This document shows, piece by piece, positions 1,415-20,133 of a stretch of 64,000 bases of DNA. The notes beneath the pieces are model-generated. The model had not been told where the DNA came from. It saw only the letters and a list, made by a program, of their open reading frames with translations, and ran no database searches. Made by a program: the position numbers and the translations under genes. The stretch is taken from IMG/VR virus record IMGVR_UViG_3300026538_000054, positions 64,285-128,284 of that record; one strand, written 5' to 3'. This DNA comes from a virus. Position 1 is the first letter of the stretch. Every line of letters begins with the position of its first letter.

Positions 1415-1436
1415 TACCGGTAGATGAGCCTGACAC

Positions 1437-3586: not shown

Positions 3587-3592
3587 CAACGC

Positions 3593-6500
3593 ATGGCTAA
3601 CCTACCGCCGCTTCAAGGCCCCGTCTCCGCGACGCCGTCAGGCCATGGCGCCCCTGTGACCATGCGGGCCTTTGACGATCACGCCGCGACCAGGGAGGCC
3701 ATTTATTCCAAGACCCTGAAGGCCCTGGAGAAACTGCCGCCTGTCGAGAACGCGCGACACTCCTTGCGCGTCGAGAGGCCCGCCTACGCAGGCCCCGGCA
3801 TGGTCTCCCTGGCCGAGCAAAACAGGGCCATTCTTGAAGGGCGGTCGCTTTTTCGCCGGCTCAAAGGCGACGTGGTCCTCACGGACAAGGCCACGGGCAA
3901 GGAGCTCGACCGAAAGAACGTGACCATCGCCCAGGTGCCCATGTACACCCAACGCGGCACGTTCATCTTTAACGGTTCTGAAAATGGATTGTCACACCAA
4001 TTGAGGCTGCAGTCAGGCATCTACGCCCGAATACGCAGCACGGGCGAGGCGGAGTCGCACGTCAATGTACGGCCAGGCAAAGGCCTCTCTCACCGCTACT
4101 TCCTGGACCCGGAGACCGGCCTCTTCAAGCTCCAGGCTGGACAGGCCTCTGTGCCCCTGGTCACCGTGCTGCGCGCGATGGGTGCGACAGACAGGGAGCT
4201 GCAAGAGGCCTGGGGCCGAGAGCTCTTCTCCGTTAACGCCAAGAAGGACGACCCGCGCTCCATCGAGAAGCTCTACGAGAAGCTGGAGCGACGCCCTGAC
4301 AAGCAAGCCCCTGCCGAGGGCAAGCGCCTCAGGGTGGCCGAGCTCATGGCGAAGATGGAGCTTGACCCCGAGGTCACGAAGCGGACGCTGGGCCATCCCC
4401 ATGCCACCCTGAGCAAGGAGACCATCCTGGCCGCCACCAGGAAGTTGCTCCGAGTGGCCAGGGACGAAGAAGAGCCGGACGACCGAGATCACCTGGCCTA
4501 TCAGACCTTCCACGGCCCGGAGGACATGATCGCGGAGAGGGCTGAGCGGTCATCGCCCCTGTTCCACCAGCTTTTGTGGAAGGCGACGCGCACGGGCAAG
4601 CTGGACCATGTTCAGCCCAACTTCCTGTCCAAACATGTTCAAGGGGCCATCCTTGACTCAGGCATTGGTAACAACCTGGAAGAAATTAACCCATTAGAGT
4701 TCCTTAACAACGCGCACAAGATAACTCGTATGGGCCGAGGCGGCATCGCCTCAATTGACAGTATACCTTCGTCCAGTAGAGCGGTTCACTCGAGTCACGT
4801 CGGTTTCATTGACCTGGTCTCGACCCCGGAAAGTCAACGTGCCGGCGTAGACACTCGCGCCGGGTTCAAGGCCCTGAAGGGCGACGACGGCCGGCTCTAC
4901 ACGCCGGTACACAACGCCAGGACTGGCAAGGAAGAGCTCAAAAGCCCGCAGGACCTGGCGGACGCCGTCCTCGCCTTCCCAGGGCAAATGCAAACCGGCA
5001 AGAAGCGCGTGACCGCCCTGGTCAAGGGCAGGGCGACCAGTGTGCCTCGCGAAGAGGTGGATTATGCCCTGCCCCACATGGAGCACGCCTTCACACCTAC
5101 GTCCAACCTGGTCCCGCTCAAGGCCATGAGCAAGGGCCAGCGGGTGAGCATGGGTGGTCGGTTCCTGGTTCAGTCCGTGGCGCTCAAGGACGGTGAAGCG
5201 CCCCTGGTCCAGGGCCTTGTTCCCGGCACCAACAAGTCCTTTGAAGAGCTCTACGGACGCCACGTCGGCGCTGTCCATGCCAGAGATGATCAAGGCGGTC
5301 GCGTGGTGAAAGTTACGCCCGACGGCATCACGGTCAAGTACGACGACGGCAAGACCGAAGAACACGAACTGTACAATCACTTCGTACTGAACAGGAAATC
5401 GCTTCTGCACAATACGCCAGTGGTGCGAGAAGGTGACAGGATTGAAGCGGGCCGTCCGCTGGCGAAGTCCAACTATACCGATGCCCAGGGCCGCGTGGCT
5501 GTCGGTAAGAACCTGCGCACGGCGTACATCGCACATGGTGGAGGTTCTTCCGCGAACTACGAGGATGCCTGGGTCATCAGCGAGTCGGCGGCCAAGAAGT
5601 TCACCAGCGACCACGCCTACCAGCACGCGATCGAGTGGGAAGACAACCACAAGCGCGGCAAGCGCACCTACCAGGCGCTCTTCCCTACGAAGTACGACCG
5701 AAAGACGTTGGAGCTCCTGGACGAAGATGGCGTGATCAAGCCAGGGACCAAGGTTGAGTCCGGTACGCCCCTGGTCCTGGCCGCCAGTCAGAAAGACCCT
5801 GATCGCAAGACCGTTCACCAGAGTAGAGGCGGTGGCTTCTCAGACGCTTCTCTTGTCTGGGACCACCACGCTCCTGGAGAGGTGGTCAGCGTCGCCAAGA
5901 CGGACAAGGGCGTCAACGTTGTAGTTAGGTCATTTAATACGACTGAGATAGCGGACAAACTTTGTTACGACCCTGAGACGGAGGTGCTGACCAGCCGCGG
6001 CTGGGCGCGCGTAGCTGAGCTAACCACCGCCGACGAGGTCGCCACGTTGGGGCCAGAGGACCGGATCGAGTACCTCCAGCCTGTCGGTATCCACCGCTAC
6101 CACCACATCGGCCGGATGTATCGGCTGGAGACGACGCAGATCGATCTACTGGTCACCGAGAACCATCACCTGTACGCCTGCCGCAGGAATCGGTCTGAGT
6201 ACTCTCTCCAGACTGCGTCCGAGCTATTCGGGAAGACGTTTCGGCTGAAACGAGACGGCGTGTGGACTGGCGCCTCGCCGGACTTCGTCAAGATGCCGGA
6301 CCTCGTTGTTAAGGCTGGGCAGTTCGGCCACGGTGAGCGCGCCCTGGATGGGCCGAGCTTGCCGACCGACGTGTTTGTCATGCTACTCGGGATGTACCTG
6401 TCGGAGGGCTGTACGTTCAACCAGCCGAGCTACGGGTCGTACGGCATCGATATTACGCAGATCAATCCTGGCGGGCGCGCCAAGCTGTTTCCGGCGCTGG

Positions 6501-9097
6501 ATGCCGCTGGTCTGAAGTACAACGCCACGTCGAACGGCGCGCGAATCTATAGCAAGTCGTTGATGGCCTATTTCAACCAGTTTGGGCGCGCCAAGGACAA
6601 GTTCATCCCTGAAGAGGTGTTTTTCTGGGCCACGGAGCACCTCAAGTCTCTTTACTACTGGCTCATGTGGGGCGATGGCTGTGAGGGTGGTACGGGCCAC
6701 TCTTACTGCACCACGTCGCCTCGACTGGCCGACGACTTTCAACGGCTCCTGCTCCACATCGGGATGTCAGGCAACATCAAGAGGGTCGAAGCCAGGCGCG
6801 GCGTGATCAAGGGCAAGGAGTACGACTTCGCCCCTCGCTACGACGTTTCTGTCTTCCGGTCGAAAAACAGGCCAGAGATCAATCACGGTCACTGGAAGAC
6901 CCAAAACGGGCAGAGAGAGGCCTGGGAGGAGTACTCAGGCGAGGTCTTCTGTCCGCAAATGCCGAAGAACCACGTCATCTATGTCCGCCGAAACGGCAAG
7001 CCGGTCTGGTGCGGCAACAGCGGGCTTTACGGAGACAAAGGTGTTATATCGGGAATCATGAAAGATGATGAGATGCCTCATGATGAGAATGGCAAACCAT
7101 TTGAGATGCTAGCTAATCCTTTAGGAGTTATATCAAGAATTAACGCTAGCCAGGTGGCAGCGGCTGTCCTGGGCAAGATCGCCCAGAAGACGGGCCAGCC
7201 GTACAAGGTGGAGGACTTCCCTCACGACAAAGAGGACATCACGGGCTGGGTGCAGCAAGAAGCCAAGAAGCACGGCGTCAAGGACCTGGAGACGGTGATC
7301 GATCCTGTGACAGGGAAGCGCATTCCCAACGTGTTGACAGGCGTTCGCTACTATATGAAACTACACCACTCGGCTGAGGGAAAGGCTTCTGCGAGGGGCC
7401 TTGGCGCCTACGACGCTGAAGGAACGCCTGCGCGAGGCCCTGGCGAGGCGGCTCAGGCCAAGCGACTGGCGCTCATGGAGACGAACGCGCTGCTCAGCCA
7501 TTCCGCGCTTGACGTCCTCAAGGACGCCAGATTGGTTCGCGGTAACCAGAACGTCGAGCTCTGGGCGAGCTACATGGGCGGTGACCACCCGTCGACGCCG
7601 CCGGTGCCTTTTGTCTTTCAGAAGTTCGTGAATCAGCTCAAGGCCGCGGGCGTGAACGTGACGCGCAAGGGTGCGCAGACCAGGATCACCGCCCTGACCG
7701 ACAAGGACATTGATGAGCTGGCGGGCGACAGGGAGCTGGGAAACGCCGAGACAGTCCACTGGGGCGAGGACATGCGGCCTGTCAAGGGCGGCCTGTTCGA
7801 CGAGCAACTCACGGGTGGTCACACGGGCCAGAAGTGGGTGAAATTGGTTCTTGCCGAGCCGATGCTGAACCCGGTGATGGAAGAGCCAGCCCGTCGCCTC
7901 CTAGGCCTGACCCAGGCGCAGCTCGAGAGCGTGATCAAAGGAGAGCGAGAGCTTCAGGGCAAGAAGGGCCCGGAGGCCATCTCGCACGCGCTTGCGTCTA
8001 TCAACCTGGAGAAGGGCATCTCGCGCGCCAGGGCGGATATCGCTTCGGGCAGGAAGACCTTGCGAGACGACGCCGTCAAGCGGCTGAGCTACCTGAAAGC
8101 GGCGCAGTCTACTGGCGTTCACCCTGGCGACTGGGTACTGAAGGCCGCCCCTGTTCTTCCTCCTATCTTCAGGCCGGTCTCCGTGATGCAGGGCACGGGC
8201 GGCACTCTGATTGCTGACGCCAACGTGCTCTATCGCGACTTGTTCGAGTCGAACCAGGTCCTCAAGGGCCTGAAGGGGCAGGTTGACGACACCGGTGCCG
8301 AGATGTTGTCGGTCTACAACGCGCTCAAGGCCGTTCAGGGGCTGGGTGATCCCGTCAACGCCAAGACGCAAGAGAAGAAGGTCAAGGGCCTTCTGGACAC
8401 GGTCTTCGGCTCTTCCAGCAAGCACTCCGTGGTGCAGTCGAGGCTCATTGGTACGCCTGTCAACAACGTGGGTAGGGGCGTGGTGATCCCTGACGCCGAT
8501 CTGGACATGGATGAGGTAGGCATACCGGAGGCCCACGCCTGGAAGGTCTACGAGCCTTCGCTCATCAGGTCGCTTGTCCGTCGCGGCATGGGCCGTGTTG
8601 ACGCCCTGGCCCACGTCAGGGACAAGAGCGATGTCGCTAGGCAGGCCCTTCTGGCCGAGACGGAGAAGGGGCCGATTCTGATGACCAGGGCCCCTGTGCT
8701 TCATCGCTTTGGCATCTTGGCCTTGCTGCCGCGGCTGGTAAAGGGTGACGCTGTTAAGGTTAATCCTTACATAGTGGCAGGCCAGGGCATGGACTTTGAC
8801 GGTGATGCTGTCAACTATCATCTCCCTTTAACGCAAGAAGCTAAGCAAGAGGCTATGGAGAAGATGCTGCCCAGCAAGAGCCTTCTCGCCGTGAGCGACC
8901 TACACACACCGATGTTCAACGTCCGCCAGGAGTTCCAGGCCGGTCTCTACCGCATGACCCACGCCGAGAACAAAGAGAAGCGAGCGCGCACCTTCGCGAC
9001 CATGAAGGACCTTCACAAGGCCTACCTGCGCGGCGAGATCGAGGCGGACGATCCGGTGACGGTCATGGACCATGGCGGCCAGAGCGGTGCGAAGTAG
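3593..9097 (+). CDS. phage multisubunit DNA-directed RNA polymerase, fused beta + N-terminal beta' chain, intein-containing
   Basis: beta motifs GTFIFNGSE, HSSHVGFIDLVSTPES, NYEDAWVISES, DKL/SGLYGDKGVI, NPLGVISRIN, YYMKLHH; beta' motifs GGLFD, PVLPPIFRP, RAPVLHR and catalytic DFDGD at 8792-8806. Confidence 0.95.
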   Translation: MANLPPLQGPVSATPSGHGAPVTMRAFDDHAATREAIYSKTLKALEKLPPVENARHSLRVERPAYAGPGMVSLAEQNRAILEGRSLFRRLKGDVVLTDKATGKELDRKNVTIAQVPMYTQRGTFIFNGSENGLSHQLRLQSGIYARIRSTGEAESHVNVRPGKGLSHRYFLDPETGLFKLQAGQASVPLVTVLRAMGATDRELQEAWGRELFSVNAKKDDPRSIEKLYEKLERRPDKQAPAEGKRLRVAELMAKMELDPEVTKRTLGHPHATLSKETILAATRKLLRVARDEEEPDDRDHLAYQTFHGPEDMIAERAERSSPLFHQLLWKATRTGKLDHVQPNFLSKHVQGAILDSGIGNNLEEINPLEFLNNAHKITRMGRGGIASIDSIPSSSRAVHSSHVGFIDLVSTPESQRAGVDTRAGFKALKGDDGRLYTPVHNARTGKEELKSPQDLADAVLAFPGQMQTGKKRVTALVKGRATSVPREEVDYALPHMEHAFTPTSNLVPLKAMSKGQRVSMGGRFLVQSVALKDGEAPLVQGLVPGTNKSFEELYGRHVGAVHARDDQGGRVVKVTPDGITVKYDDGKTEEHELYNHFVLNRKSLLHNTPVVREGDRIEAGRPLAKSNYTDAQGRVAVGKNLRTAYIAHGGGSSANYEDAWVISESAAKKFTSDHAYQHAIEWEDNHKRGKRTYQALFPTKYDRKTLELLDEDGVIKPGTKVESGTPLVLAASQKDPDRKTVHQSRGGGFSDASLVWDHHAPGEVVSVAKTDKGVNVVVRSFNTTEIADKLCYDPETEVLTSRGWARVAELTTADEVATLGPEDRIEYLQPVGIHRYHHIGRMYRLETTQIDLLVTENHHLYACRRNRSEYSLQTASELFGKTFRLKRDGVWTGASPDFVKMPDLVVKAGQFGHGERALDGPSLPTDVFVMLLGMYLSEGCTFNQPSYGSYGIDITQINPGGRAKLFPALDAAGLKYNATSNGARIYSKSLMAYFNQFGRAKDKFIPEEVFFWATEHLKSLYYWLMWGDGCEGGTGHSYCTTSPRLADDFQRLLLHIGMSGNIKRVEARRGVIKGKEYDFAPRYDVSVFRSKNRPEINHGHWKTQNGQREAWEEYSGEVFCPQMPKNHVIYVRRNGKPVWCGNSGLYGDKGVISGIMKDDEMPHDENGKPFEMLANPLGVISRINASQVAAAVLGKIAQKTGQPYKVEDFPHDKEDITGWVQQEAKKHGVKDLETVIDPVTGKRIPNVLTGVRYYMKLHHSAEGKASARGLGAYDAEGTPARGPGEAAQAKRLALMETNALLSHSALDVLKDARLVRGNQNVELWASYMGGDHPSTPPVPFVFQKFVNQLKAAGVNVTRKGAQTRITALTDKDIDELAGDRELGNAETVHWGEDMRPVKGGLFDEQLTGGHTGQKWVKLVLAEPMLNPVMEEPARRLLGLTQAQLESVIKGERELQGKKGPEAISHALASINLEKGISRARADIASGRKTLRDDAVKRLSYLKAAQSTGVHPGDWVLKAAPVLPPIFRPVSVMQGTGGTLIADANVLYRDLFESNQVLKGLKGQVDDTGAEMLSVYNALKAVQGLGDPVNAKTQEKKVKGLLDTVFGSSSKHSVVQSRLIGTPVNNVGRGVVIPDADLDMDEVGIPEAHAWKVYEPSLIRSLVRRGMGRVDALAHVRDKSDVARQALLAETEKGPILMTRAPVLHRFGILALLPRLVKGDAVKVNPYIVAGQGMDFDGDAVNYHLPLTQEAKQEAMEKMLPSKSLLAVSDLHTPMFNVRQEFQAGLYRMTHAENKEKRARTFATMKDLHKAYLRGEIEADDPVTVMDHGGQSGAK
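5963..7018 (+). mobile_element. intein with LAGLIDADG homing endonuclease (352 aa) in RNAP beta
   Basis: starts CYDPETEVLT, block B VTENH, LLGMYLSEG and WLMWGDG motifs, ends WCGN|S; removal restores DKL-SGLYGDKGVI. Confidence 0.93.
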
Positions 9098-9132
9098 CTG
9101 CTGCGTGTTGACGCTGTCTGGCAGTCTTTTCT

Positions 9133-9144
9133 TTTTCCGGAAAA
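9133..9144. repeat. palindrome TTTTCCGGAAAA
   Basis: exact 12-bp palindrome, also at 23456, 44488, 60862. Confidence 0.75.
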
Positions 9145-9156
9145 CATATTCAAGCG

Positions 9157-9225
9157 GCCAATAGCTAAAAGAAAACGGCGGGATGGCGCTTGCGCGCCAC
9201 CTCCCGACCGTCTTCATCCTGCGCT
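9157..9225 (-). terminator. intrinsic terminator, duplicated unit copy 1
   Basis: minus strand GC stem with GCAA loop followed by TTTTCTTTT, right after the Csx15-like stop; 67/69 identical to 9777-9845. Confidence 0.8.
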
Positions 9226-9574
9226 ACCAGGCCCCACCCATTTTCCTCATCGAGGGCGCTGCGGCGTAGGCCCTGGCCTTGAGCCGCAGAGACCTAGGGA
9301 AGTAGCCGGACCGGCCGTCGATCTCGGCCAGGATCGCGTCGGCGAGGGAGGAGCAGACGGGAAGCACCAGGGCGAAGCGATTGGCCTGCCACTGACTGCC
9401 GCTCCACCCGACCTGATCCACCATCGCCTTCGCCTGCGGCCCGAAAGGCGCAGTGACGTCGGCCTGACATTCGATGTTTTTCACTTCCTGGTCGCGCGCG
9501 ACCAGGTGGGGGCTTTCGGTGATCGCCTTCAGGGAGGCGGCGGTCAACGGGTGACGGAAATTGAGAATGATCAT
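9224..9574 (-). CDS. csx15: Csx15-like protein (CRISPR-associated ring-nuclease family)
   Basis: MIILNFRHPLT...F..Q...MVD.VG....WQ...LVLP...LAEIDGRSGYFP..LRL matches the Csx15 pattern as I recall it (NFSHPLT...WQ...LAELHGR.GYFP); RBS AAAGGAG. Confidence 0.75.
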   Translation of the reverse strand: MIILNFRHPLTAASLKAITESPHLVARDQEVKNIECQADVTAPFGPQAKAMVDQVGWSGSQWQANRFALVLPVCSSLADAILAEIDGRSGYFPRSLRLKARAYAAAPSMRKMGGAW

Positions 9575-9586
9575 AAAAGCTCCTTT

Positions 9587-9681
9587 ATCGGCGCGGGCAC
9601 GCGAAAGTTCGCATGGCTACCCGCTCCTCACTACATATTGACGCAATTTATGTCATAATTAAGTTCTTATGCGCGGCGGCA
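9587..9681 (-). promoter_or_regulatory. duplicated AT-rich promoter-like element plus leader hairpin, copy 1
   Basis: 91/95 identical to 10773-10867; directly upstream of a minus-strand gene; AT-rich core CATAAGAACTTAATTA...AAATTGCGTCAATAT. Confidence 0.7.
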
Positions 9682-9776
9682 GCCGTCGACTTGGAGTCGC
9701 CGACCAGAACAGACTGACGCTACCTGACAGGCGTTCCTTTCTAGACTACTGGGCGGCGCAGTGCCGGAACCGAGAA

Positions 9777-9845
9777 GCCAATAGCTAAAAGAAAACGGCG
9801 GGATGGCGCTTGCGCGCCACTTCCCGACCGTCTTCGTCCTGCGCT
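9777..9845 (-). terminator. intrinsic terminator, duplicated unit copy 2
   Basis: near-identical to 9157-9225. Confidence 0.8.
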
Positions 9846-9849
9846 GTCT

Positions 9850-9886
9850 GGCGCAGCATTCAGCCCGCTGCGCAGGGCTGCTTCAC
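9850..9886 (-). repeat. 37-bp pseudoknot/CRISPR-repeat-like element
   Basis: GTGAAGCAGCCCTGCGCAGCGGGCTGAATGCTGCGCC; contains the stop codon of the 9883..10353 gene. Confidence 0.85.
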
Positions 9887-10353
9887 TCGACGCGGCCCCA
9901 CCGCCTGATAGCGGCGCCCCAGCGAGACGTGGAGCCGCAACAGGACGTGGGCGGATCATCCACCAGTCTAGGGCCTACCGTCGGCCCAACGCCTTGGGCA
10001 TAGACAGATATCCATTTCTGCTTCATGAACAACTCGGCCTCCGGTCCCTGGTCGTTGACCTGGGACCGGCGATCCACGATCTCAGGCCGGCGAGTCGGGC
10101 CTTCGTCCGCTTCCTGCTCCGAGTGAGCCTCGGCGTCGAGCACGCTGATCCTGGACTGCACACGGTCGTTGTGCAGGCAACTCGCCGCCTTCAGAGCCGC
10201 CAGCCGGACGAACTCCTCGCGCTGAGCCCGACACTTGGCCTTGTCGAGCTGGTCGCAGAGGCCCTCGAACACGCCGATGACGATCAACGCCAGCGCGGCG
10301 ATGACCAACAGAGAGCCGATGATCTCCACGAAGATGGCGGATTTCTTGTTCAT
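9883..10353 (-). CDS. hypothetical membrane-anchored protein
   Basis: start MNKKSAIF after GAAAGGGAG; N-terminal TM helix IIGSLLVIAALALIVIGVF. Confidence 0.65.
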   Translation of the reverse strand: MNKKSAIFVEIIGSLLVIAALALIVIGVFEGLCDQLDKAKCRAQREEFVRLAALKAASCLHNDRVQSRISVLDAEAHSEQEADEGPTRRPEIVDRRSQVNDQGPEAELFMKQKWISVYAQGVGPTVGPRLVDDPPTSCCGSTSRWGAAIRRWGRVE

Positions 10354-10374
10354 TTTTCTCCCTTTCAGAAAACG

Positions 10375-10403
10375 AAAAAGGGAGGCCTGAAAACAGGCCT
10401 CCC
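10375..10403 (-). terminator. intrinsic terminator-like hairpin
   Basis: GGGAGGCCTG-AAAA-CAGGCCTCCC with T-tract on the minus strand. Confidence 0.65.
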
Positions 10404-10467
10404 GGCACCGGAAATCGAGAAGATCAGAAGACAGGAGAGGGCGGCCCTCTCCTGGCAACGCGTGTAA

Positions 10468-10752
10468 TCAGCTCGCGATGGCCGCGAGCCTGGAAGGGGA
10501 GCGCAGCCCGCGCCTCTCGCGCAGTCGCGCGCGTAAGCAGTGCAGGGCCGCCTCGTAGCGGCCCGTGCCGTCCAGGGGCTGGTTCAGTCGGTAGGACTCG
10601 ACGACCGCCAGCGCGGCGGTGGCGGCAGCGTCGGCCATGTCGGCCGCATCGAAGTCGACGTCACGGCAGCACGCGGTCGCCGTCTTCTTGATTTTCTCGG
10701 CCGCGATCTCCGCCGACCGCCGACACAGGAACAGGATCTGTTCGCCGAGCAT
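10468..10752 (-). CDS. hypothetical protein (putative early gene)
   Basis: 94-aa ORF downstream of duplicated promoter copy 2, GGAG RBS. Confidence 0.6.
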   Translation of the reverse strand: MLGEQILFLCRRSAEIAAEKIKKTATACCRDVDFDAADMADAAATAALAVVESYRLNQPLDGTGRYEAALHCLRARLRERRGLRSPSRLAAIAS

Positions 10753-10772
10753 GACAAGGCTCCGTCAACGAG

Positions 10773-10867
10773 ATCGGCGCGGGCACGCGAAAGTTCGCAT
10801 GGCTACCCGCGCCTCACTAAATATTGACGCAATTTATGGCCTAATTAAGTTCTTATGCGCGGCGGCA
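10773..10867 (-). promoter_or_regulatory. duplicated AT-rich promoter-like element plus leader hairpin, copy 2
   Basis: 91/95 identical to 9587-9681. Confidence 0.7.
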
Positions 10868-11090
10868 CAAGAGAGGCCACGTCCTTGTTGGTGAGCACCA
10901 CGGTCCGGTCCAGGCCCAGCGACTCCAGGTGCCTCTCGAAGTCCGGCTCGCCGGCGGAGATGAACCGTACGTGCTCCTGGCTCACCTGGAAGAAGACGGC
11001 CAGCGGGCGGCCCTGATTATCCTTGATCACGAGCCGGGTGGCGTTTATCCGGACCGGCGACTCCATCCTGTTGTGCGATTCCAGGATCAT
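10845..11090 (-). CDS. hypothetical protein
   Basis: 81-aa ORF starting MILESHNR, 4 bp downstream of the preceding stop. Confidence 0.6.
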   Translation of the reverse strand: MILESHNRMESPVRINATRLVIKDNQGRPLAVFFQVSQEHVRFISAGEPDFERHLESLGLDRTVVLTNKDVASLVPPRIRT

Positions 11091-11094
11091 GCTC

Positions 11095-11820
11095 TCACCA
11101 CCCTTCCACGGGCTGTTCGCCCACGGCCGCTTCTCTCTCCTTGAGTCGCTTCTGGAACCGCCAGGCGGCCACGCGGGCGTGTTCGACCGTGGACAGTTCG
11201 GCCCTGGGCAGGCCCCTGCCGTGCGAGGCTTGCTTGCCGCCTGCCTGCGGGAAGGCGCTTTGCATCGGCTCCATGGGCTGGATGGTGCTTTGCGGCGGCT
11301 GTCCACCCGCCTGCCCCTGTTCTTGTCCTCCCTGGACCACCGAGCCACCGTCGGCCGCTTGCGCCGGCATGCCGGTGACAGGGTCGCGGTTCGGGCCGTC
11401 CAGGATGTCGGGCGGCGGCTCCTTGCCTCTGGAGCGCATGTCGTGCATGACCAGCTTCTTGAGCTGAAACATGTCCGTGGCCATGGCGGCAGGGTCCGGT
11501 TTGTTGGTCTTGGGCTGTCCCTTGCCCGCTCCCACCCCTGACTGAGCCAGGGCGTTGTTCACGGCCGTCTGCACGGTCGTGGCCAGGTCGCCCCCTCCTT
11601 CCGTCGGAGTGGGCGCAGGGATGGGAGGGGCCGTAGGCGGCGGCATGGCCCCGCCACCGCCAGCAGGGCCTTGAGCCGGTGGCGGCGGGGACATCGCACC
11701 ACCCTCCGACGCGGGTGGCCCGCCGCCACCAGCGGCGGCAGCGGCCGCGTCGGAGGGGACGGCAGCCTTTTTCGCGATGGCGGCCCGAGCGTAGAAGAGA
11801 GCGGCCTTGTCCAGGGGCAT
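11095..11820 (-). CDS. Pro/Gly-rich putative virion protein with K-x-A motifs
   Basis: AGGAG RBS; DKAA, KKAA, KQAS; low-complexity PGA segments resembling 50810..52129. Confidence 0.65.
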   Translation of the reverse strand: MPLDKAALFYARAAIAKKAAVPSDAAAAAAGGGGPPASEGGAMSPPPPAQGPAGGGGAMPPPTAPPIPAPTPTEGGGDLATTVQTAVNNALAQSGVGAGKGQPKTNKPDPAAMATDMFQLKKLVMHDMRSRGKEPPPDILDGPNRDPVTGMPAQAADGGSVVQGGQEQGQAGGQPPQSTIQPMEPMQSAFPQAGGKQASHGRGLPRAELSTVEHARVAAWRFQKRLKEREAAVGEQPVEGW

Positions 11821-11985: not shown

Positions 11986-12022
11986 TTTGCAGCAATAAGC
12001 CCGCTGCAGAGGGCTTTGGTAC
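11986..12022 (-). repeat. 37-bp pseudoknot/CRISPR-repeat-like element
   Basis: GTACCAAAGCCCTCTGCAGCGGGCTTATTGCTGCAAA. Confidence 0.85.
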
Positions 12023-12039
12023 GTCGGTCATCTTAGCAG

Positions 12040-12279
12040 GTACGGTGAAACGGTCGCTCGAGAGGCCTTCACCTGCGACCACTGCAACTGGGACGAGGTC
12101 CAGGCCTGGCAGGGCGGGCTGATCAGACAACTGGCCAGGCTGGCCTACGAAGGCCGTCAACCGGTTGACGGCGCTCTTGACCCGGCTGCGAGGAGCAAGC
12201 CATCCTTGAGTACCTTCGCAGCGCAGGCCCCCACGTCAGGGGCTGCTGGGCCCTTGACCTCGTTCTCGGTAAGGACTGA
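12040..12279 (+). pseudogene. truncated, frameshifted remnant of the Gemmata-type paralogous family
   Basis: ...AWQGGLIRQLARLAYEGRQPVDGALDP, frameshift, GCEEQAILEYLRSAGPHVRGCWALDLVLGKD*; the LADALEEA segment and N-terminus are missing; start approximate. Confidence 0.75.
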
Positions 12280-12284
12280 CGAAG

Positions 12285-13187: not shown

Positions 13188-13441
13188 AACCGGTGGACAA
13201 CACCAACCAGTCTGGATCGCGGGAGCCCGCGGACGTGCTGCTCGAGGCGCTGAAGACGCCCGGTAAGACGAAGGTACGTTTCACGTTCGAGGCAGGCATA
13301 TCTCGCGAGGCCATCACCGAGCGGCTCGACGCGCTCAGAAAACTAGTCGAAAGCGTCGGCGGGACGATGACCGTGGAGAGCGTGGACTTTCCCGACGCCG
13401 AATGGGACGACGAATCGGCCGCTATGGAGGAGCACCCGTGA
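13184..13441 (+). CDS. hypothetical protein
   Basis: coupled 85-aa ORF. Confidence 0.55.
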   Translation: MKPVDNTNQSGSREPADVLLEALKTPGKTKVRFTFEAGISREAITERLDALRKLVESVGGTMTVESVDFPDAEWDDESAAMEEHP

Positions 13442-14055
13442 CGACGTTGCAAACCATCATTGATCTCCAGGCCGCTCACCGCGCCGTCCTGGAAGAGCCG
13501 TTCCGTGATGAGTGGCGACTCGCCTACGCCGACGCGCGAGAGGACATGGGCCTGGGCCTCGACGCCGAGTTTCTTCGCGACAGGGTGGCCGGCAAGCCCG
13601 ATGATACCGAGGGCTACTGGTTCGGGCCGGCCCTGCCCAACGAAGTGAAGGCGCACCAGATCTACAAGGGCTTCGTCTCTGGCGTGTCGCTGGCCTGCGG
13701 GGGCTTTCAGCGACACGCCAGGGAGCTATTCTCCTCTCACCCGATCATCGGGGTCATCCTCACGGACAGACACGCCGGCCTAGTTGGCCTGGATGGCCAT
13801 GACGATTTGTCCTACTTCTTAGACGAGGCCCGCTGGCCCACTTTGACTAGCAAGACCGACCGGTTGCCTCACGCCGTTTACGAGCTACTTGAGCCGGACC
13901 TGCTGACTCGCATCGGCAACAAGGGCTTTACGAGCCCGGAGAGGGCCAACAGGGCACTGAGCCAGGCCCTGGTACGCTACGGGCGAGGCCTGGTGCAACC
14001 GCCCCTGCCCGAGCTGGTGTTTCCCAAGCCCGAAGAAGAGGAGAAGGACCGATGA
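13438..14055 (+). CDS. TIGR02996-like domain protein
   Basis: RAVLEEPFRDEWRLAYADARED; later KGFV...LFSSHPI..V.LTDR and ALSQALV, paralleling 25033..25746. Confidence 0.7.
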   Translation: MTTLQTIIDLQAAHRAVLEEPFRDEWRLAYADAREDMGLGLDAEFLRDRVAGKPDDTEGYWFGPALPNEVKAHQIYKGFVSGVSLACGGFQRHARELFSSHPIIGVILTDRHAGLVGLDGHDDLSYFLDEARWPTLTSKTDRLPHAVYELLEPDLLTRIGNKGFTSPERANRALSQALVRYGRGLVQPPLPELVFPKPEEEEKDR

Positions 14056-14558
14056 ACTGCCGCGTGAGGCTCACTGATGTCCAGGGTGATCGAGCTGGTT
14101 TCGCCGACCTGATCGGCAAGGAGGGGGCGCTTACCACCGTCGCCGAGGGCGTGTACTTGTCGCTCGACGGCGTGATCGGTTCCATGACTCTGCCGGCCCG
14201 GAGCATCGAGAAGGACGACGAGAAAATCGTGGTCAAGACCCGACGGGACAACACCTTCGTCTTCGCCGTCGGCAAGGGCTTGCTCGCCGCGGCCCAGGCT
14301 GACAAGGCGCACAAAGAAGAGCACAAGGATAAGGCCGCGCCGGCCATGCCCGAGGAGAAGAAACCGCATCACGAAGAGATCAGGCCCTCCGAGCCAGAGA
14401 AGAAGGACGTGCCGGAGAGCATCACCCAGCCGATCGTCGAGCTGCCTCCTCCCGAGGAGAAGAAGGCGCAGCCGGAAGAGAGCAAGCCCGCGCAGGCGCC
14501 CAAGAAGGATGCCTCTACGCCGCCGGCTACCGGCAAGCACGAGAGAAAAGGGAAGTGA
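14052..14558 (+). CDS. hypothetical protein with charged Pro-rich tail
   Basis: coupled ORF, GGA RBS. Confidence 0.65.
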   Translation: MNCRVRLTDVQGDRAGFADLIGKEGALTTVAEGVYLSLDGVIGSMTLPARSIEKDDEKIVVKTRRDNTFVFAVGKGLLAAAQADKAHKEEHKDKAAPAMPEEKKPHHEEIRPSEPEKKDVPESITQPIVELPPPEEKKAQPEESKPAQAPKKDASTPPATGKHERKGK

Positions 14559-14977
14559 TGGCGAGCGAGGAGCGGGCGAACAAGCCGTTCTATCTGAGCG
14601 TGTTCCTGCGACCAGGGAAGTCACCCGAGGCCCCACAGCGATTGCATGTGCGTGTCGGCCTCACCTCCTGGGCCGGGGTAGATGATGCGGCGGGACGCGA
14701 GAACAGACTTCATGAATGGACTTTCAGCCACGCTCATGCTCCCGCCCCCGATGCCCGAACCGTTGATGTTGTCGTGATCGCCCCGCAGTGCCGCGTCGAG
14801 CCTCTGTCCGCCCGGCTGCCCTGGCCTCCGGGGGAGGAGCAGTTCCGCGAGTTCTTCCTCACCCTCTTCCCCGAAGAGGTCGGCAAGCGGGACAGCCTCT
14901 GGGTTCGGGTGGAGCTGCTGACCCGGAATCGGGAGGTCGAGTCGGTGCAGGAAGAGTTCGCTCTGTCCGTAGGGTAG
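14555..14977 (+). CDS. hypothetical protein
   Basis: coupled 140-aa ORF. Confidence 0.6.
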   Translation: MMASEERANKPFYLSVFLRPGKSPEAPQRLHVRVGLTSWAGVDDAAGRENRLHEWTFSHAHAPAPDARTVDVVVIAPQCRVEPLSARLPWPPGEEQFREFFLTLFPEEVGKRDSLWVRVELLTRNREVESVQEEFALSVG

Positions 14978-15040
14978 TGGCCGCAAAATGGATGACTAAC
15001 GCCCGGCCTAGACAAGAAGAGAGGCCACGACCATGAGCGA

Positions 15041-15077
15041 TTCGCAGCTTTTAGCCCGCTGCGTAGGGCTTGATCAC
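15041..15077 (-). repeat. 37-bp pseudoknot/CRISPR-repeat-like element
   Basis: GTGATCAAGCCCTACGCAGCGGGCTAAAAGCTGCGAA. Confidence 0.85.
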
Positions 15078-15131
15078 GTCTGCTAGCCCAGTGAAGCGCG
15101 CCGATTGGTCAAGTAGCGAGGGACAAGCACC

Positions 15132-15344
15132 ATGAGCGACAAAGCCTGGATCGTGTTGCGCTGTGAGATTTGTGATCGTGAAGAGGGCCCGATGACCAAG
15201 GCAGAGATGGTGACCTGCCGGAACGAAGGCTGGTCGGGCCTCGAGAGGGGATACTTCCCCGGCTGGTGGCCAAGACACATACCCATCACCTGGACGCATA
15301 TGGGTGACTGCCCCGCGTGCGTCAAAGAGGCGAAAATAGCATGA
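15132..15344 (+). CDS. small Zn-finger-like protein
   Basis: CEIC...CPAC. Confidence 0.6.
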   Translation: MSDKAWIVLRCEICDREEGPMTKAEMVTCRNEGWSGLERGYFPGWWPRHIPITWTHMGDCPACVKEAKIA

Positions 15345-15550
15345 CGATAGAAGAACGAGAGGCGTTTCTGGGCTGGCGAGCCAACGAGGCGCCGACGGAA
15401 GAGCAACTGCGCTACCTGGCCCGCAGGCTCTTAAACCATCTACCCATGAGCAGGGTCATGTCCTGCGACGTCGATGAGGCCGTCACGTTGCTCAAGGCCC
15501 TTCACGAACACGGTCGTTTGTGCGGCGCTGCTGAGTTCATGCGGCTGTGA
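15341..15550 (+). CDS. hypothetical protein
   Basis: ATGA-coupled ORF. Confidence 0.55.
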   Translation: MTIEEREAFLGWRANEAPTEEQLRYLARRLLNHLPMSRVMSCDVDEAVTLLKALHEHGRLCGAAEFMRL

Positions 15551-15628
15551 AGACGGGCGCAGTTTGATCCGGAAAAGAAACCAGGGGCCGGCTGCCGTGT
15601 AGCCTGGCCCTCTCACCAGGATGAGGAG

Positions 15629-15940
15629 ATGAAACGACGACCTGTGGTGACGAGAGAGATCCTAGAGGGCTTGTGTCAAGCCTACGGCCGCATGGAGGCG
15701 GACGACCTGTCTGACCTGACCGATGAGCAGCAGGCCGCGTTCGAGGCGGCTGGGCGGTGGGTCAGTAAGATGTGGGAATTCATGCCACCTTCGGAACGGC
15801 GGGAGGAAGAAGCCGAGGCGCTGCTTGACCAGCAGCGCGCCAGCGGCCCCATCCAGGAAGCTCAGGAGCGGATGGCTAACCGTATCAAGGAGATACAGGC
15901 GGAGAAGAACCGGCAAGGGCCGTACCACTGGGAGGCGTGA
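15629..15940 (+). CDS. hypothetical protein
   Basis: GAGGAG RBS, 103 aa. Confidence 0.6.
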   Translation: MKRRPVVTREILEGLCQAYGRMEADDLSDLTDEQQAAFEAAGRWVSKMWEFMPPSERREEEAEALLDQQRASGPIQEAQERMANRIKEIQAEKNRQGPYHWEA

Positions 15941-15998
15941 CTGACCCGCGACACCTGAGCGGCCCTCGCCCGGCCGCTCGTCTCTGAAAGATGATTGG

Positions 15999-16196
15999 AT
16001 GACGCCGGAACACCGTGACAATATTCGCGCCGCCAACAAGCGGCGCAGCAAGCACCTCTGTCAAAGCTGCGGCCAGCTCGTGACCGTTCGAGATGGATCG
16101 GAAGTTGGCGGCTTGCCTGGAGTCAAGTACCGCCAGTGCAACGGCTGTGGTGCGACCGTCGCCATTACCAGGCGGCCTCCTCGTCGCCTGCCGTAA
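15999..16196 (+). CDS. small Zn-ribbon protein
   Basis: CQSCG...CNGCG. Confidence 0.55.
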   Translation: MTPEHRDNIRAANKRRSKHLCQSCGQLVTVRDGSEVGGLPGVKYRQCNGCGATVAITRRPPRRLP

Positions 16197-16237
16197 ACCG
16201 GCCCGGTTCGCCAGACGGGCCATATAGAGGAGTGAGA

Positions 16238-16666
16238 ATGTCCGAGATGAAGCACACGGAAGAGCCTTGGGAATTGGTGTTGATGGAGGAGGGGCCGGTA
16301 CTGATGGGTGGAGACGGCCAGCCAGTGCTGTACTCCATGCCGCAAAAGGCGCCGTACCGTCGCCCTCCAGAGGAGCGAGCCGCCAACATGCGTCGCATGG
16401 GCGTGTGCGTCAACGCCATGGTTGGTGTGCCCAACGAGGCGGTGGAAGAGGTGACGTGCAGACTGGGCGCCTTGATCCGACAGCGGGACGCGTTTTTGGC
16501 GATCGTAGCGGCCTACGAGCAATGGGAGGCCGACCTGATCCAGTCGCAAGAAGCGTGGGCGGGAGGGCTGGCTCCGTTGCCGACCCTGACGCAGGAGTTG
16601 TTCGACCGCTTGCTGGAGATTCAGGCGTTGCGCAACGCCGCCATCGCCAGCGCGAACGGCAAGTAA
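16238..16666 (+). CDS. phage protein with KHT..PW / AN.RR...CVNA motif
   Basis: MSEMKHTEEPW...AANMRRMGVCVNA; GAGGAG RBS. Confidence 0.65.
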   Translation: MSEMKHTEEPWELVLMEEGPVLMGGDGQPVLYSMPQKAPYRRPPEERAANMRRMGVCVNAMVGVPNEAVEEVTCRLGALIRQRDAFLAIVAAYEQWEADLIQSQEAWAGGLAPLPTLTQELFDRLLEIQALRNAAIASANGK

Positions 16667-16702
16667 CCAAGACAGAAGCACGGCCCTGGAGGGACCACGA
16701 AG

Positions 16703-17227
16703 ATGAACAACTGGGCCACCATCGACGACCCTTTGGACGAGGAAGAGCGCCGCGCCTTGCTAGCCGCCAAGGACCGCGGTCGTAAGCGCCTGAAGAGCGG
16801 CGTCATGGACATCCGTCCAGACCTGCACGCGGTCGCTCGCGGGGGCCTGGAGGCCGAGGTCCGCCGGCTGCAGCTCCTCGTCTTCCGTCTGCTCAGGGAC
16901 AGGCCGCCCAGCCTTTCTCAGCCCGACGACGCACCCGAGCTGAAAACGCCATGCGCCCAGATGGAGCGGGCCTTGCTTGACGCCATGGCGTTTCTTTCCC
17001 GCTTGTCTGATGCCGACGAGCTGTGCGACCGGATCATCGGTCTCCTGGAGCCGGGGGCGTGCGGTATCGACGGTTGTAAAGACCCAGCGGACCATCTGGT
17101 ATGGGACCGGGTCAAGGAACAGGTAGTTCGTTGCTGCGACAGCCACTCCAACGAGATCCTCGACCAGGAAGGCCCGGAGTACTCCAGTTTCTGCCCCAAC
17201 TGTGGTTGCGACATCCCTATCAACTGA
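16703..17227 (+). CDS. hypothetical protein with C-terminal Cys clusters
   Basis: GGAGG RBS; CGIDGC, CCDSH, CPNCGC. Confidence 0.65.
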   Translation: MNNWATIDDPLDEEERRALLAAKDRGRKRLKSGVMDIRPDLHAVARGGLEAEVRRLQLLVFRLLRDRPPSLSQPDDAPELKTPCAQMERALLDAMAFLSRLSDADELCDRIIGLLEPGACGIDGCKDPADHLVWDRVKEQVVRCCDSHSNEILDQEGPEYSSFCPNCGCDIPIN

Positions 17228-17245
17228 CTCCTGCTAACATCACGG

Positions 17246-17282
17246 GTTGTCAAGCCCGCCGCGGCGGGCCTGTTGCCGCGAC
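17246..17282 (+). repeat. 37-bp pseudoknot/CRISPR-repeat-like element upstream of RNAP beta'-C gene
   Basis: GTTGTCAAGCCCGCCGCGGCGGGCCTGTTGCCGCGAC. Confidence 0.8.
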
Positions 17283-17310
17283 CACCCGATGTGCCACGCG
17301 TGAGAACTTC

Positions 17311-20133
17311 ATGCCCCTTAACAGCACCGCCGGCCAGGCCCTCGTGAACGCCGTCCTCCCTGAGGAACTGCGCAACCACGAGCGCGCCCTGGACAAGAAG
17401 GGCATGGCCTCGCTCATGAAGGAGGTGGCCAGGAAGCACCCTGAGCAGTACCGAGAGGTCCTCTTTCGCCTGGGGAAGCTAGGCCATCTCACCGCCTACC
17501 ACACAGGGTCTCTCTCCTTTGGCCTGGAACACATGCGCACCGCGGTCAGCGCCAGAGACATGAAGAGAAAGCTGCGCCAGGAGATCGATCAGATCTATGA
17601 CCACCGTTCTCTATCTCAAAAAGAGAAAGAACAGAAGATCGTTGAGCTGGTGAGCTCCTATCAAGCTCCTCTCGAGAAGGCCGTCTACGACGAGTCCCTT
17701 GCCGAGGGAAACCCTCTTGCTCTGCAAGTTCTCTCAGGGGCCAGGGGCAACAAGACCAACCTGCGCTCCCTGAGAGGCGCTGATCTTCTCTACGTAGACC
17801 ACAAGGACCAGCCCGTCCCCATCCCTATCTTGCGATCCTACTCCGAGGGCCTGACCCCGGCTGACTACTATGCCGGCAGTTTCGGAGCGCGAAAGGGCGT
17901 CATTGACGTCAAGCAGGGCGTGGCTGATTCGGGCTTCGCCTCCAAGTTGCTCGTCCAGATGTCTCATCGCCTGGTGACCACCTCTCTGGATCATCCCGAG
18001 CCACCCTCTCGTATCAGGGGCCTGCCTGTTGACCTTGACGACCCTGACAACGAAGGTGCTCTCCTCGCCCATGACATAGGGCCGTTCAAGAGAAACACCG
18101 TCCTCACCCCTGACGTGCTTCACCGGCTCAAGCAAGAAGGCCACAAACACCTCCTTGTGAGATCGCCTACCGTCGGCGGCCCGCCTGACGGAGGAGTGTA
18201 CGCCCGTGACGTTGGTATCAGAGAGAAGGGCGTGATATCTCCCGTAGGAGATTTCGTCGGCATCGCCGCCGCACAGGCTCTCTGCCTAGCTGAAGGCACG
18301 TTGGTCACCCTGGCTGATCTCACTTTCAAGCGCATCGAAGAGGTCGCTCCGGGAGACCTTATTCTGGCGGCCAACAGCAAGGGTGAGACCGCTTCGGCCA
18401 AGGTGAACAGACGTTTCCTTAACGGCCCCCGTGCGTGTTTACGTTACTTCTGGTCGAATCAGGAGCATTCTGTTCTTGCCACGAGCGAACACAAAGTGCT
18501 CAGGCCTGACAAGACCGTCAGGCCCTTCGACCAGACCTCCGTGGTCTTGCTTCATACGCCTCAAGGGCCTACTCCAGCCGCCCTGGATGAGCCTCTTCAT
18601 CAAGAGCCAATCATCCTGCCCACCTATGACCTGGAGATCGACCACCCCGAGCATCTCTACGTGCTCAAGGGCGGCTTGATCGTGGCCAACTCTGAGCCTC
18701 TTACCCAGAGCACGCTGGGCAGCAAGCACTCGGGGGGCGTAGCTGGGGCCAAGAAATCAGGGCCTACGGGCTTCAAATTGCTCTCTTGCTTGGGAGAAGG
18801 CACGTTGGTGCGCATGGCCGACGTGCCTTCCAAGGAGATTGAGAAGATCAAGCCGGGTGACAGGGTCATCGGTGCGAACTTGGAGGGGGGATGGTTCCCC
18901 GTCCAGGTCAAGAACGTCTTTGACAACGGCCAGCGCCCTTGTCGCACGTTCACCTTTGAGTCGATGCTTGGTGAGGAGAGCCTCACTGCCACGGACGACC
19001 ATCTCGTACTGGCTCAGGCGCCCTGCTACAAGATCGACAAGACCCTGGCTGACAAGGGCCTGAAACGGTTTGATGAGTGGGAAGGCGGCCTCAAGGTCTC
19101 GCTGGGAGAGATACGCACGGCGCATAACTTGCCTCACCCGTTGGCGCCTGTGGGCTACAGGCCTGTGAAGGCCGCCAAGGAGCCTGGTTCTCCAGGCGTT
19201 CGTGTCGAGCTCCTCTACGCCACCCCTGAGGTGCTTCTCCCTACCTACGACCTGGAGGTGGATCACCCTGACCACCTCTTCGTCCTGGCCAACGGCCTGG
19301 TGGTGAGCAACTCGCAGATTCAGGTTCCCAAGGCCTTCCCATCTGGAGCTTCTCACTCTCAAGAAGATGGCCGCGTGCAAGCCGTCTTCCCTGCGCCCCA
19401 GGGCGGTAACTACGTGCAGGTCAACGGCCACAAGCACTACGTGGCCCCTGGCTTCGACGTCCTGGTCAAGCCAGGCGATGAGGTTGAATCTGGCGATGTT
19501 CTCAGCGAGGGAGTACCGAACCCTGCGGAAGTGGTGGCTCACAAGGGCGTTGGAGAAGGCAGGGCCTACTTCGTCCAGGCGTTCAGAGACTCGTTCAAGC
19601 GCTCAGGCCTGCAGGCGCATCGCCGGAACATCGAGCTGGTCGCCAGGGGCCTGATTGACCATGTCAGGCTTACCGAGGAGCATGGGCACTACTCCCCGGA
19701 TGACGTAGTGCAGTACTCCCGTCTGGAGAGGGACTGGCAGCCAAGAGACGGTGCCAAGGAAAAGGCCCCCAACGAGGCCATGGGGCACTACCTGGAAGCG
19801 CCGGTGCTGCACTACTCCATCGGGACGAAGATCAGGCCCAGCGTGGTGAAGCGCCTGTCTCAGTTCGGCGTCAAGAGCGTGTTGGTGCATCAGCAACCAC
19901 CGCCTTTTGAGCCTGAAATGGTCAGGGGGATGGAGAACCTGACCCATGACCCCGACTGGATGACGAGATTTCTGGGGCCTTATGTGAAAAAGAACTTCCT
20001 GAAGGGCGTTGCCAGGGGTGACATCTCCGACGAGGCCGGAAGCAGCTACGTCCCTTCTCTGGCCAGGGGAGCGGACTTCAACCGTCTGCCGCCTGTCAAG
20101 GGCTTTGACCCCAGGTCTCTGGGCCAGCTCTAA
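17311..20133 (+). CDS. phage RNA polymerase beta' C-terminal chain with two mini-inteins
   Basis: SGARGN, SYSEGLT..DYY...GARKG.ID.K...ADSG (bridge helix), VRSP, VGIAAAQAL|SEPLTQSTLGSKHSGG (trigger loop), HRRNIELVAR; ATG 17311 preferred over 17101. Confidence 0.93.
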   Translation: MPLNSTAGQALVNAVLPEELRNHERALDKKGMASLMKEVARKHPEQYREVLFRLGKLGHLTAYHTGSLSFGLEHMRTAVSARDMKRKLRQEIDQIYDHRSLSQKEKEQKIVELVSSYQAPLEKAVYDESLAEGNPLALQVLSGARGNKTNLRSLRGADLLYVDHKDQPVPIPILRSYSEGLTPADYYAGSFGARKGVIDVKQGVADSGFASKLLVQMSHRLVTTSLDHPEPPSRIRGLPVDLDDPDNEGALLAHDIGPFKRNTVLTPDVLHRLKQEGHKHLLVRSPTVGGPPDGGVYARDVGIREKGVISPVGDFVGIAAAQALCLAEGTLVTLADLTFKRIEEVAPGDLILAANSKGETASAKVNRRFLNGPRACLRYFWSNQEHSVLATSEHKVLRPDKTVRPFDQTSVVLLHTPQGPTPAALDEPLHQEPIILPTYDLEIDHPEHLYVLKGGLIVANSEPLTQSTLGSKHSGGVAGAKKSGPTGFKLLSCLGEGTLVRMADVPSKEIEKIKPGDRVIGANLEGGWFPVQVKNVFDNGQRPCRTFTFESMLGEESLTATDDHLVLAQAPCYKIDKTLADKGLKRFDEWEGGLKVSLGEIRTAHNLPHPLAPVGYRPVKAAKEPGSPGVRVELLYATPEVLLPTYDLEVDHPDHLFVLANGLVVSNSQIQVPKAFPSGASHSQEDGRVQAVFPAPQGGNYVQVNGHKHYVAPGFDVLVKPGDEVESGDVLSEGVPNPAEVVAHKGVGEGRAYFVQAFRDSFKRSGLQAHRRNIELVARGLIDHVRLTEEHGHYSPDDVVQYSRLERDWQPRDGAKEKAPNEAMGHYLEAPVLHYSIGTKIRPSVVKRLSQFGVKSVLVHQQPPPFEPEMVRGMENLTHDPDWMTRFLGPYVKKNFLKGVARGDISDEAGSSYVPSLARGADFNRLPPVKGFDPRSLGQL
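18283..18690 (+). mobile_element. mini-intein (136 aa, no endonuclease)
   Basis: CLAEGTLV...ATSEHKV...TYDLEIDHPEHLYVLKGGLIVAN|S. Confidence 0.9.
18787..19311 (+). mobile_element. mini-intein (175 aa, no endonuclease)
   Basis: CLGEGTLV...ATDDHLV...TYDLEVDHPDHLFVLANGLVVSN|S. Confidence 0.9.

Follow-up and report, generated by a model that had tools for sequence, protein, structure and literature searches.

A probable two-chain RNA polymerase of bacterial type, with beta joined to the front of beta', in a 199-kb tailed phage

Does a tailed phage carry a bacterial-type RNA polymerase (RNAP) of its own, divided between two genes at an unusual place, and would such an enzyme travel in the virion? 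The question is raised by two genes on a 64,000-nucleotide stretch of the virus record IMGVR_UViG_3300026538_000054 (positions 64,285 to 128,284), referred to below as the window, in which all positions are counted unless a contig is named. The original prediction for this locus held that one chain combines beta with the catalytic half of beta', that the remainder of beta' is encoded about 8 kb away, and that the two chains form a distinct RNAP, possibly packaged in the virion. From the analysis described here, the two genes very probably encode a stripped-down two-chain enzyme of the bacterial type, which would be the sole RNAP of a complete 199-kb tailed phage and would assemble, find its promoters and reach the host by the steps proposed below.

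Two polymerase genes and three inteins

The gene for chain 1 (P0001; 3593..9097, + strand), recognized from its open reading frame (ORF) and translation and from Pfam and NCBIfam profiles, encodes beta and the N-terminal part of beta' fused in frame. Its precursor has 1834 amino acids (aa), or 1482 aa without the intein, and carries the Pfam domains Rpb2_2, Rpb2_3 and Rpb2_6 (1e-39) of beta, followed by Rpb1_1 (weak) and Rpb1_2 (9e-19) of beta'. The NCBIfam models of rpoB, rpoC and the cyanobacterial gamma and beta' subunits match both chains in matching order. The N-terminal extein of beta (aa 1-790; 3593..5962, +; Pfam and alignment) ends with the ADKL of the active-site GDK...GxKG motif, the C-terminal extein of beta (aa 1143-1362; 7019..7678, +; alignment) extends up to the beta/beta' joint, and the N-terminal part of beta' (aa 1363-1834; 7679..9094, +) was delimited by alignment, NCBIfam, AlphaFold and Foldseek. 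In E. coli numbering, which was assigned throughout via Salmonella sequences of equal length, the end of beta joins directly onto beta' residue ~20, and the chain terminates at beta' residue ~566, about 96 residues past the catalytic Asp triad and at position ~534 of the rpoC profile. After removal of intein 1, the NYEDA and GDKG of chain 1 align with E. coli beta 813-814 and 1065. The clamp helices, lid and rudder are retained in the beta' part, and the catalytic sequence is located at aa 1732-1738 (8786..8806, +; alignment), where it reads GMDFDGD instead of NADFDGD, as had been predicted together with the run of beta motifs through to the beta' DFDGD in one chain. For an AlphaFold model of the C-terminal 692 residues (1143-1834; mean predicted local distance difference test score, pLDDT, 72), the best Foldseek matches were plastid RpoC1, cyanobacterial gamma and E. 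coli beta' (E ~1e-27).

The remainder of beta' was found in the second gene, again as predicted. Chain 2 (P0002; 17311..20133, +) was defined by its ORF, Pfam Rpb1_5, NCBIfam models and family alignments. The full open frame, 17101-20133 (+), could encode 1010 aa with Rpb1_5 and Hint modules, but the true start is almost certainly M71 at position 17311, because the family alignments and the metagenome gene calls (a 940-aa form) begin there, and because the first 70 codons overlap the preceding ORF 16703-17227, which shows good codon-position guanine-plus-cytosine (GC) content. The upstream part of the frame (17101..17310, +) is thus probably untranslated, as judged from the family alignments, gene calls and ORF overlap. 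From M71 the precursor has 940 aa, or 629 aa without inteins; residue 71 falls at rpoC profile position ~546 (NCBIfam), and chain 2 begins at E. coli beta' residue ~567, the next aligned residue after the end of chain 1. The bridge helix (17884..17967, +) and the trigger loop with its His are visible in the alignment, the loop being interrupted by two inteins in the precursor.

Could the two genes instead be a cellular rpoB-rpoC pair broken by misassembly or frameshift, or halves that a split intein rejoins? This explanation was raised because the window sits on contig C51 (199,122 bp) of an intein-rich, 5.39-Mb assembly of 107 contigs; no evidence for it was found, and we regard its probability as close to negligible. 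The assembly has its own normal, separate rpoB and rpoC on contig C37, with 24-28% identity to the phage chains, and the two phage genes are separated by 8.2 kb that contain roughly a dozen ORFs, not all of them on the polymerase strand. Over 100 independent contigs show the same split layout, as do cultured phages such as Salmonella phage Arash and Vibrio phage D69. Joining of the chains by a split intein or a frameshift was ruled out: the chains end at adjacent beta' residues, 566 and 567, so there is no room for split-intein halves.

Removal of inteins, which the original prediction had proposed as a check, uncovered three of them and gave the mature lengths above. Intein 1 (aa 791-1142, 352 aa; 5963..7018, +; Pfam and alignment) contains a LAGLIDADG homing-endonuclease domain and interrupts the beta motif at ADKL / SGLYGDKG. 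Intein 2 (P0002 aa 395-530; 18283..18690, +) is a mini-intein of 136 aa that interrupts the trigger loop in its first half (AAQAL / SEPLTQ), and intein 3 (P0002 aa 563-737; 18787..19311, +) is a 175-aa mini-intein in the same loop. The two are 35% identical (E = 1e-27) and are separated by 32 extein residues. All three match intein profiles (Pfam Hint, LAGLIDADG_3, TIGR01443) and show class 1 features, namely an N-terminal Cys, a TxxH block (TENH, TSEH and TDDH) and an Asn at the end with Ser as the next residue; they lack the penultimate His that is usual. Among the relatives listed in our searches, insertions of at least 100 aa were located at about 8 positions in chain 1 and 3 in chain 2, and the three sites used here recur in 6, 19 and 2 of these relatives. 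With at least 11 insertion sites, the polymerase family is a hot spot for inteins. Judging from their positions in active-site motifs, the three inteins would have to splice out before the enzyme could work, and the two related mini-inteins in the trigger loop make this copy well suited to studying how inteins spread and whether splicing gates enzyme activity.

Conserved core, lost parts and family history

The phage enzyme lacks all lineage-specific inserts of E. coli RNAP. In beta, residues 227-347, 938-1049 and 1127-1180 are missing, the first two gaps corresponding to the inserts SI1 and SI2; in beta', residues 66-97 (the zinc ribbon), 146-176, 946-1132 (insert SI3) and the last 30 residues are missing. 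The zinc-ribbon deletion point, GGLFDEQLTGGHTGQKW (7787..7837, +; alignment), marks a 32-residue deletion over E. coli beta' 66-97 that is common to every family member examined. Neither the ligand set Cys70/72/85/88 nor the set Cys814/888/895/898 is kept in the mature chains; once the inteins are removed, both chains contain no Cys at all, and therefore both beta' zinc sites are gone. The predicted absence of the N-terminal zinc-binding cluster was accordingly verified, and the loss extends to the second site. The parts that are retained include ED, GDKG and NRAPxLHR of beta, the Asp triad, the lid, clamp helices, rudder and bridge helix and the trigger-loop His, while the flap-tip helix, most residues of the rifampicin pocket and the four Cys of the second zinc site are not. 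By sequence, the nearest solved structures are the bacterial beta and beta' of C. difficile, cyanobacteria, E. coli, Thermus and mycobacteria; the best 60 matches to sequences of solved structures included no phage enzyme.

Some of these features could be read as signs of decaying or inactive genes: three inteins within catalytic motifs, lost zinc sites, GMDFDGD in place of NADFDGD, the absence of Cys and a divergent trigger loop. Decay is nevertheless very improbable. The frames are open over 1834 and 940 codons, and the Asp triad, the ED and GDKG of beta, the bridge helix and the trigger-loop His are all kept. Matching changes are conserved in hundreds of relatives; among the best 120, GADFDGD is the commonest catalytic context (66/120), followed by NADFDGD (21/120) and GMDFDGD (18/120). 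The inteins, too, keep Cys1, TxxH and the terminal Asn plus Ser, at sites that are recurrently occupied in relatives.

The split layout, which the original prediction had called unusual, turned out to belong to a very large family that includes cultured phages. Word-indexed searches gave over 1400 relatives for chain 1 and over 1200 for chain 2, and the best 120 of each have matching domain content and, without inteins, measure ~1440-1510 and ~620-645 aa. When the 311-residue beta/beta' junction was used in a full scan, it matched 708 clusters (50% identity) at E <= 1e-30; all of the 150 listed matches were far too strong for cellular proteins, and nearly all span the whole junction unbroken. 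The relatives L007 and L008 have two or three small genes between the fused gene and a downstream gene for the C-terminal part of beta'; Vibrio phage D69 shares this gene order, its two polymerase genes encoding 1527 and 609 aa, both annotated as 'hypothetical'. The split is found at the identical alignment column in the window phage, L007, L012, Arash and D69. A genome scan and a search for longer relatives also detected single-chain beta-beta' proteins, that of L025 with 2028 aa and those designated P0252-P0260 with ~1990-2560 aa.

The order of fusion and splitting was approached with three trees, two under LG+G4 on 1984 and 1959 columns and one under LG+C20+F+G4 on 839 dense columns, with 9-12 cellular taxa comprising Proteobacteria including the RpoB and RpoC of the bin, Enterococcus, two cellular full fusions and Patescibacteria. 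The cellular enzymes group at a support of 100 in all three trees, apart from the phage family, which is thus not nested in the sampled RpoB/RpoC; such nesting would, according to the original prediction, have refuted a distinct enzyme. The fused phage enzymes form one clade, with support of 97 in the first tree and 99-100 in the two trees that contain the single-chain proteins; within it the single-chain forms are basal, the split forms group with one single-chain protein at 90-92, and the separate subunits of Cobetia phage Carin-5 fall outside. Because the single-chain relatives are basal, the trees suggest that the fusion came first and that a single later cut gave the split form; a single-chain beta-beta' ancestor would thus have been cut after the beta' barrel.

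Several other members or apparent members deserve mention. On a 2.9-kb contig (L020:3-2877) beta and beta' are in separate, overlapping frames exactly at the joint, representing either a secondary separation or a sequencing frameshift. In three relatives of chain 2 (P0247, P0133 and P0136) the C-terminal part of beta' is fused to NUDIX (~920 aa) or to NUDIX plus an SNF2 helicase (1774 aa), which hints that those enzymes may work with the polymerase; an SNF2 helicase (PF00176) was not found on C51, and relatives have one nearby or fused. Matches in Dojkabacteria were discounted: their prominence in the genome scan reflects search patterns that exclude NADFDGD, and the rpoB and rpoC of these genomes are ordinary, separate genes. 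The Arash paper, two jumbo-phage polymerase reviews, a 2026 jumbo-phage review and the mReC paper do not describe the layout, nor did literature searches outside subscription journals find a description, and the family apparently represents a large, real and undescribed variant of the bacterial-type phage RNAP.

Sigma factor, packaging and the phage genome

The first 100 bp of C51 are repeated at its end, and the contig was therefore taken to be a complete, circularly assembling genome. Portal and terminase genes are present, and profile searches detected one set of polymerase domains. Alpha and omega gave no match on C51 (PF01000, PF01193 and PF01192 match host contigs only), with the reservation that divergent analogues could escape profiles; a T7-type polymerase gave no match there either, in a search whose controls were uninformative. 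The original prediction had noted that neither an alpha nor a sigma gene was visible. For alpha this can be extended to the whole of C51. For sigma it applies within the window only, since a sigma-70-family gene encoding 242 aa, the only one on the contig, is located outside it at C51:25167-25892, as identified by Pfam, NCBIfam and homology to Arash gp10.

The product of this gene is 26% identical to Arash gp10 (1e-18). Among the Pfam profiles, region 3 (Sigma70_r3) reaches 38.5 bits, above its cut-off of 25.3, region 2 gives a weak match of 12 bits, and region 4 appears only as generic helix-turn-helix matches; the SigF, SigB and RpoD models of NCBIfam cover residues ~54-224. For its AlphaFold model (pLDDT 68) the top-ranked Foldseek matches in the PDB are all sigma factors, with E-values from 2e-7. 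A homologue of the gp10 type directly follows the single-chain polymerase gene in L025 and is 9 kb from the fused gene in L016. A predicted complex of the sigma factor with the N-terminal part of beta' scored 0.58 against 0.01 for the best control, with at least 43% of contacts agreeing between runs and a partner pLDDT of at least 66. This prediction gives weak support to a sigma-core interaction, as the pass may reflect likeness to solved holoenzymes of what is a textbook pair.

From these observations the following scheme may be proposed. The covalent link between beta and beta' would take over the assembly role of the alpha dimer, the phage sigma would direct the two-chain enzyme to phage promoters, and the holoenzyme, by analogy with Arash, would be carried in the virion and make transcription independent of the host polymerase. 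In purified Arash particles the fused chain gp206 was the most detected protein (3516 spectra, 100% coverage), with 1210 spectra for gp216 and 467 for the sigma factor gp10 (PMC10585845). The original prediction had instead taken the position of the genes among others with K-x-A motifs as a sign of packaging, an argument that was not sustained by the counts: the two chains contain 8 such motifs against 11 expected and 1 against 4.2 expected, none near either N-terminus, and neighbouring genes show an excess of no more than about twofold, in a few of them only. K-x-A being not enriched, packaging is inferred only from the virion mass spectrometry of Arash.

The same counts agree with a real but unpackaged enzyme, which would be made after infection for the middle or late genes while the early genes would be left to the host polymerase, which the phage sigma might redirect. 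The polymerase genes are located away from the portal and head genes, unlike those of Arash; a single polymerase set is present, compared with the separate virion and non-virion sets of the phiKZ type (PMC7598289); and the Arash authors themselves allow that abundant enzymes may co-purify with virions (PMC10585845). The prominence of the fused chain in Arash particles, and the abundance there of gp216 and gp10, speak against this alternative, and a weak argument in the same direction is that window positions 1-20000 contain no sigma-70-consensus promoter against 2.5 expected. We consider an unpackaged enzyme unlikely, though well within consideration.

The reading of the locus as the sole, sigma-directed and packaged RNAP of the phage has further points to contend with, besides the possible carry-over in Arash. 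Activity, splicing, sigma use and packaging of this enzyme are all inferred. Asn458 of NADFDGD is replaced by Gly, and the trigger-loop Arg933 is not retained in the alignment. The flap-tip helix of beta, which in bacteria binds sigma region 4, is absent from the family in the alignment, and sigma would therefore have to dock in another way, if it docks at all; alternatively, it could redirect the host polymerase. The trees include few cellular taxa and assume their root, and the grouping of the split forms has a support of only 90-92. Finally, the assembly is probably a metagenome bin, from which the host cannot be read. Its RpoB clusters with Xanthobacteraceae proteins from metagenome bins, but proteins identical or nearly so to those of the phage were found on 5-7 further contigs, the longest of 199.8 kb, and relatives turn up in bins assigned to many different phyla.

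The surroundings of the two genes were also inspected. The separation of about 8 kb that had been predicted is real, and it is specific to this phage, as the two genes of relatives are 1-2 kb apart. The gap contains two small conserved genes of ~241 and ~84 aa (10848..11820, - strand). Their homologues in L007 also sit between the polymerase genes but share their strand, and the pair is thus inverted in this phage, which has extra genes in the gap as well. No Pfam match was found for these conserved small genes, and no Pfam or PHROG match for ten neighbours of the polymerase genes, among which no candidate small subunit emerged. The portal gene is at C51:144.5-146.6 kb, and the polymerase genes adjoin neither it nor the head genes. 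A capsid protein like T4 gp23 (PF07068) gave no match on C51, nor did it in the control genomes. At C51:187408-190431 the large terminase matches Arash TerL in two pieces, about 1.4 kb apart.

Two kinds of short elements were noticed near the polymerase genes. A perfect AT-rich palindrome, TTTTCCGGAAAA (often tcTTTTCCGGAAAAga), occurs in 13 copies on C51, the GC content of the phage being 63%. Its copies in the window, at 9133-9144, 23456-23467, 44488-44499 and 60862-60873, are seemingly in intergenic gaps, and one copy is located 36 nucleotides past the stop codon of chain 1; the palindrome may bind a dimeric regulator or mark the limits of transcription units. In the 83-nucleotide gap before chain 2, a 37-nucleotide element (17246..17282, +) was compared by eye with over-represented 10-mers and resembles, on this inspection, a diverged form of the dispersed repeat of this phage that is similar to clustered regularly interspaced short palindromic repeats (CRISPR).

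Comparison with known polymerases

If the proposed steps hold, the enzyme would be the smallest known bacterial-type RNAP that still uses sigma, with ~2110 residues in two chains against ~2780 for the beta and beta' of the host bin, which also need two alpha and omega. Tethering of beta to beta' would then make the alpha platform dispensable, the two structural zinc sites would be dispensable as well, and beta' would have been cut in the same linker three times, in cyanobacteria, in phiKZ-type phages and in this polymerase family. The enzyme would offer a compact subject for structural and synthetic-biology work, and its genes a useful marker for a large, widespread and almost uncultured group of phages of 120-235 kb.

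The closest cultured counterparts are Salmonella phage Arash (gp206, 1525 aa; gp216, 606 aa; OQ632216) and Vibrio phages D69, D148 and D181, which share the fusion of beta with the N-terminal part of beta' and the separate C-terminal part. The Arash type also shares the zinc-ribbon deletion and the gp10-type sigma factor with the window phage, although identity is only ~31%. The four Cys of the second beta' zinc site are kept in Arash and D69, whereas all Cys are lost in the clade of the window phage; D69 is free of inteins, whereas the window phage has three; and the polymerase genes adjoin the portal gene in Arash but not here. Only the polymerase, sigma, portal and terminase genes and one structural gene of C51 match Arash, and no homologues of Arash gp217 and gp196 were found on C51. 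The Arash record names the two chains 'beta' and "beta'" and leaves the fusion unmentioned (PMC10585845). The single-chain relatives (L025, P0252-P0260) belong to the same clade (99-100) and have the same joint, but their beta' is unsplit and they are 25-32% identical to the window chains. Outside the fused clade are phages with whole subunits: Rhizobium phage RHph_Y65 has a whole beta' of 1127 aa, and Cobetia phage Carin-5 has sigma, beta' of 1083 aa and beta of 927 aa as separate proteins. In Carin-5 (L010:4541-11366) the order sigma, beta', beta is the reverse of the bacterial rpoB-rpoC, and both polymerase genes are annotated as 'subunit beta'.

Among cellular enzymes, the full fusions of the Helicobacter/Wolbachia type (NF007172, NF011417) join beta in frame as here. 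They differ in having the whole of beta' in one chain and in clustering with ordinary cellular polymerases in the trees, and the window protein scores 247 bits with the NCBIfam model of cellular fusions, for which the cut-off is 5372. Such fusions are usually cited from other groups than the two in which we noted further examples of ~2670-2690 aa, an Omnitrophota bin (L090:3688-11760) and an uncultured bacterium (L024:5354-13354). The gamma (RpoC1) and beta' (RpoC2) subunits of cyanobacteria and plastids arise from a beta' cut in the same linker after the catalytic barrel, the phage cut mapping ~12-57 residues upstream of the cyanobacterial one. In cyanobacteria, however, beta is separate, and alpha, omega and the zinc sites are kept.

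Among phage enzymes, those of the mReC group are defined by separate beta and beta' matches of at least 800 aa, NADxDGD and T4-like capsid proteins (PMC7481178), whereas the window enzyme is fused, carries GMDFDGD and has a C-terminal chain of 629 aa. The crAss-like and YonO-like polymerases are too divergent for the cellular beta and beta' profiles, whereas the window chains match Pfam, NCBIfam and PDB sequences strongly. The enzymes of the phiKZ/AR9 type are relatives of beta and beta' without alpha and omega, with beta' split after the catalytic barrel; they form paralogous virion and non-virion sets of 4-5 chains in which beta is also split, and they use a phage-specific fifth subunit and have no sigma-70 homologue (PMC7598289, PMC7824862). 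In contrast, the window phage has one set, a whole beta fused to beta', and a sigma-70-family gene, and its proteins fit the best-scoring cellular Pfam models (1e-39 and 9e-19) much better than the PHROGs of the phiKZ type (4e-17 to 7e-7). The single set, the whole fused beta and the strong cellular profile matches uphold the prediction of a distinct two-chain RNAP that is neither phiKZ-like nor crAss-like. Tentatively, and with a little less than even confidence, this enzyme might be placed in a third, previously undescribed class of phage multisubunit RNAPs: a minimal two-chain core free of zinc, Cys, alpha and omega, which would be injected with the DNA, would use a true sigma-70-family factor and a fusion in place of alpha, and would derive from a single-chain enzyme that was cut near the cyanobacterial and phiKZ site.

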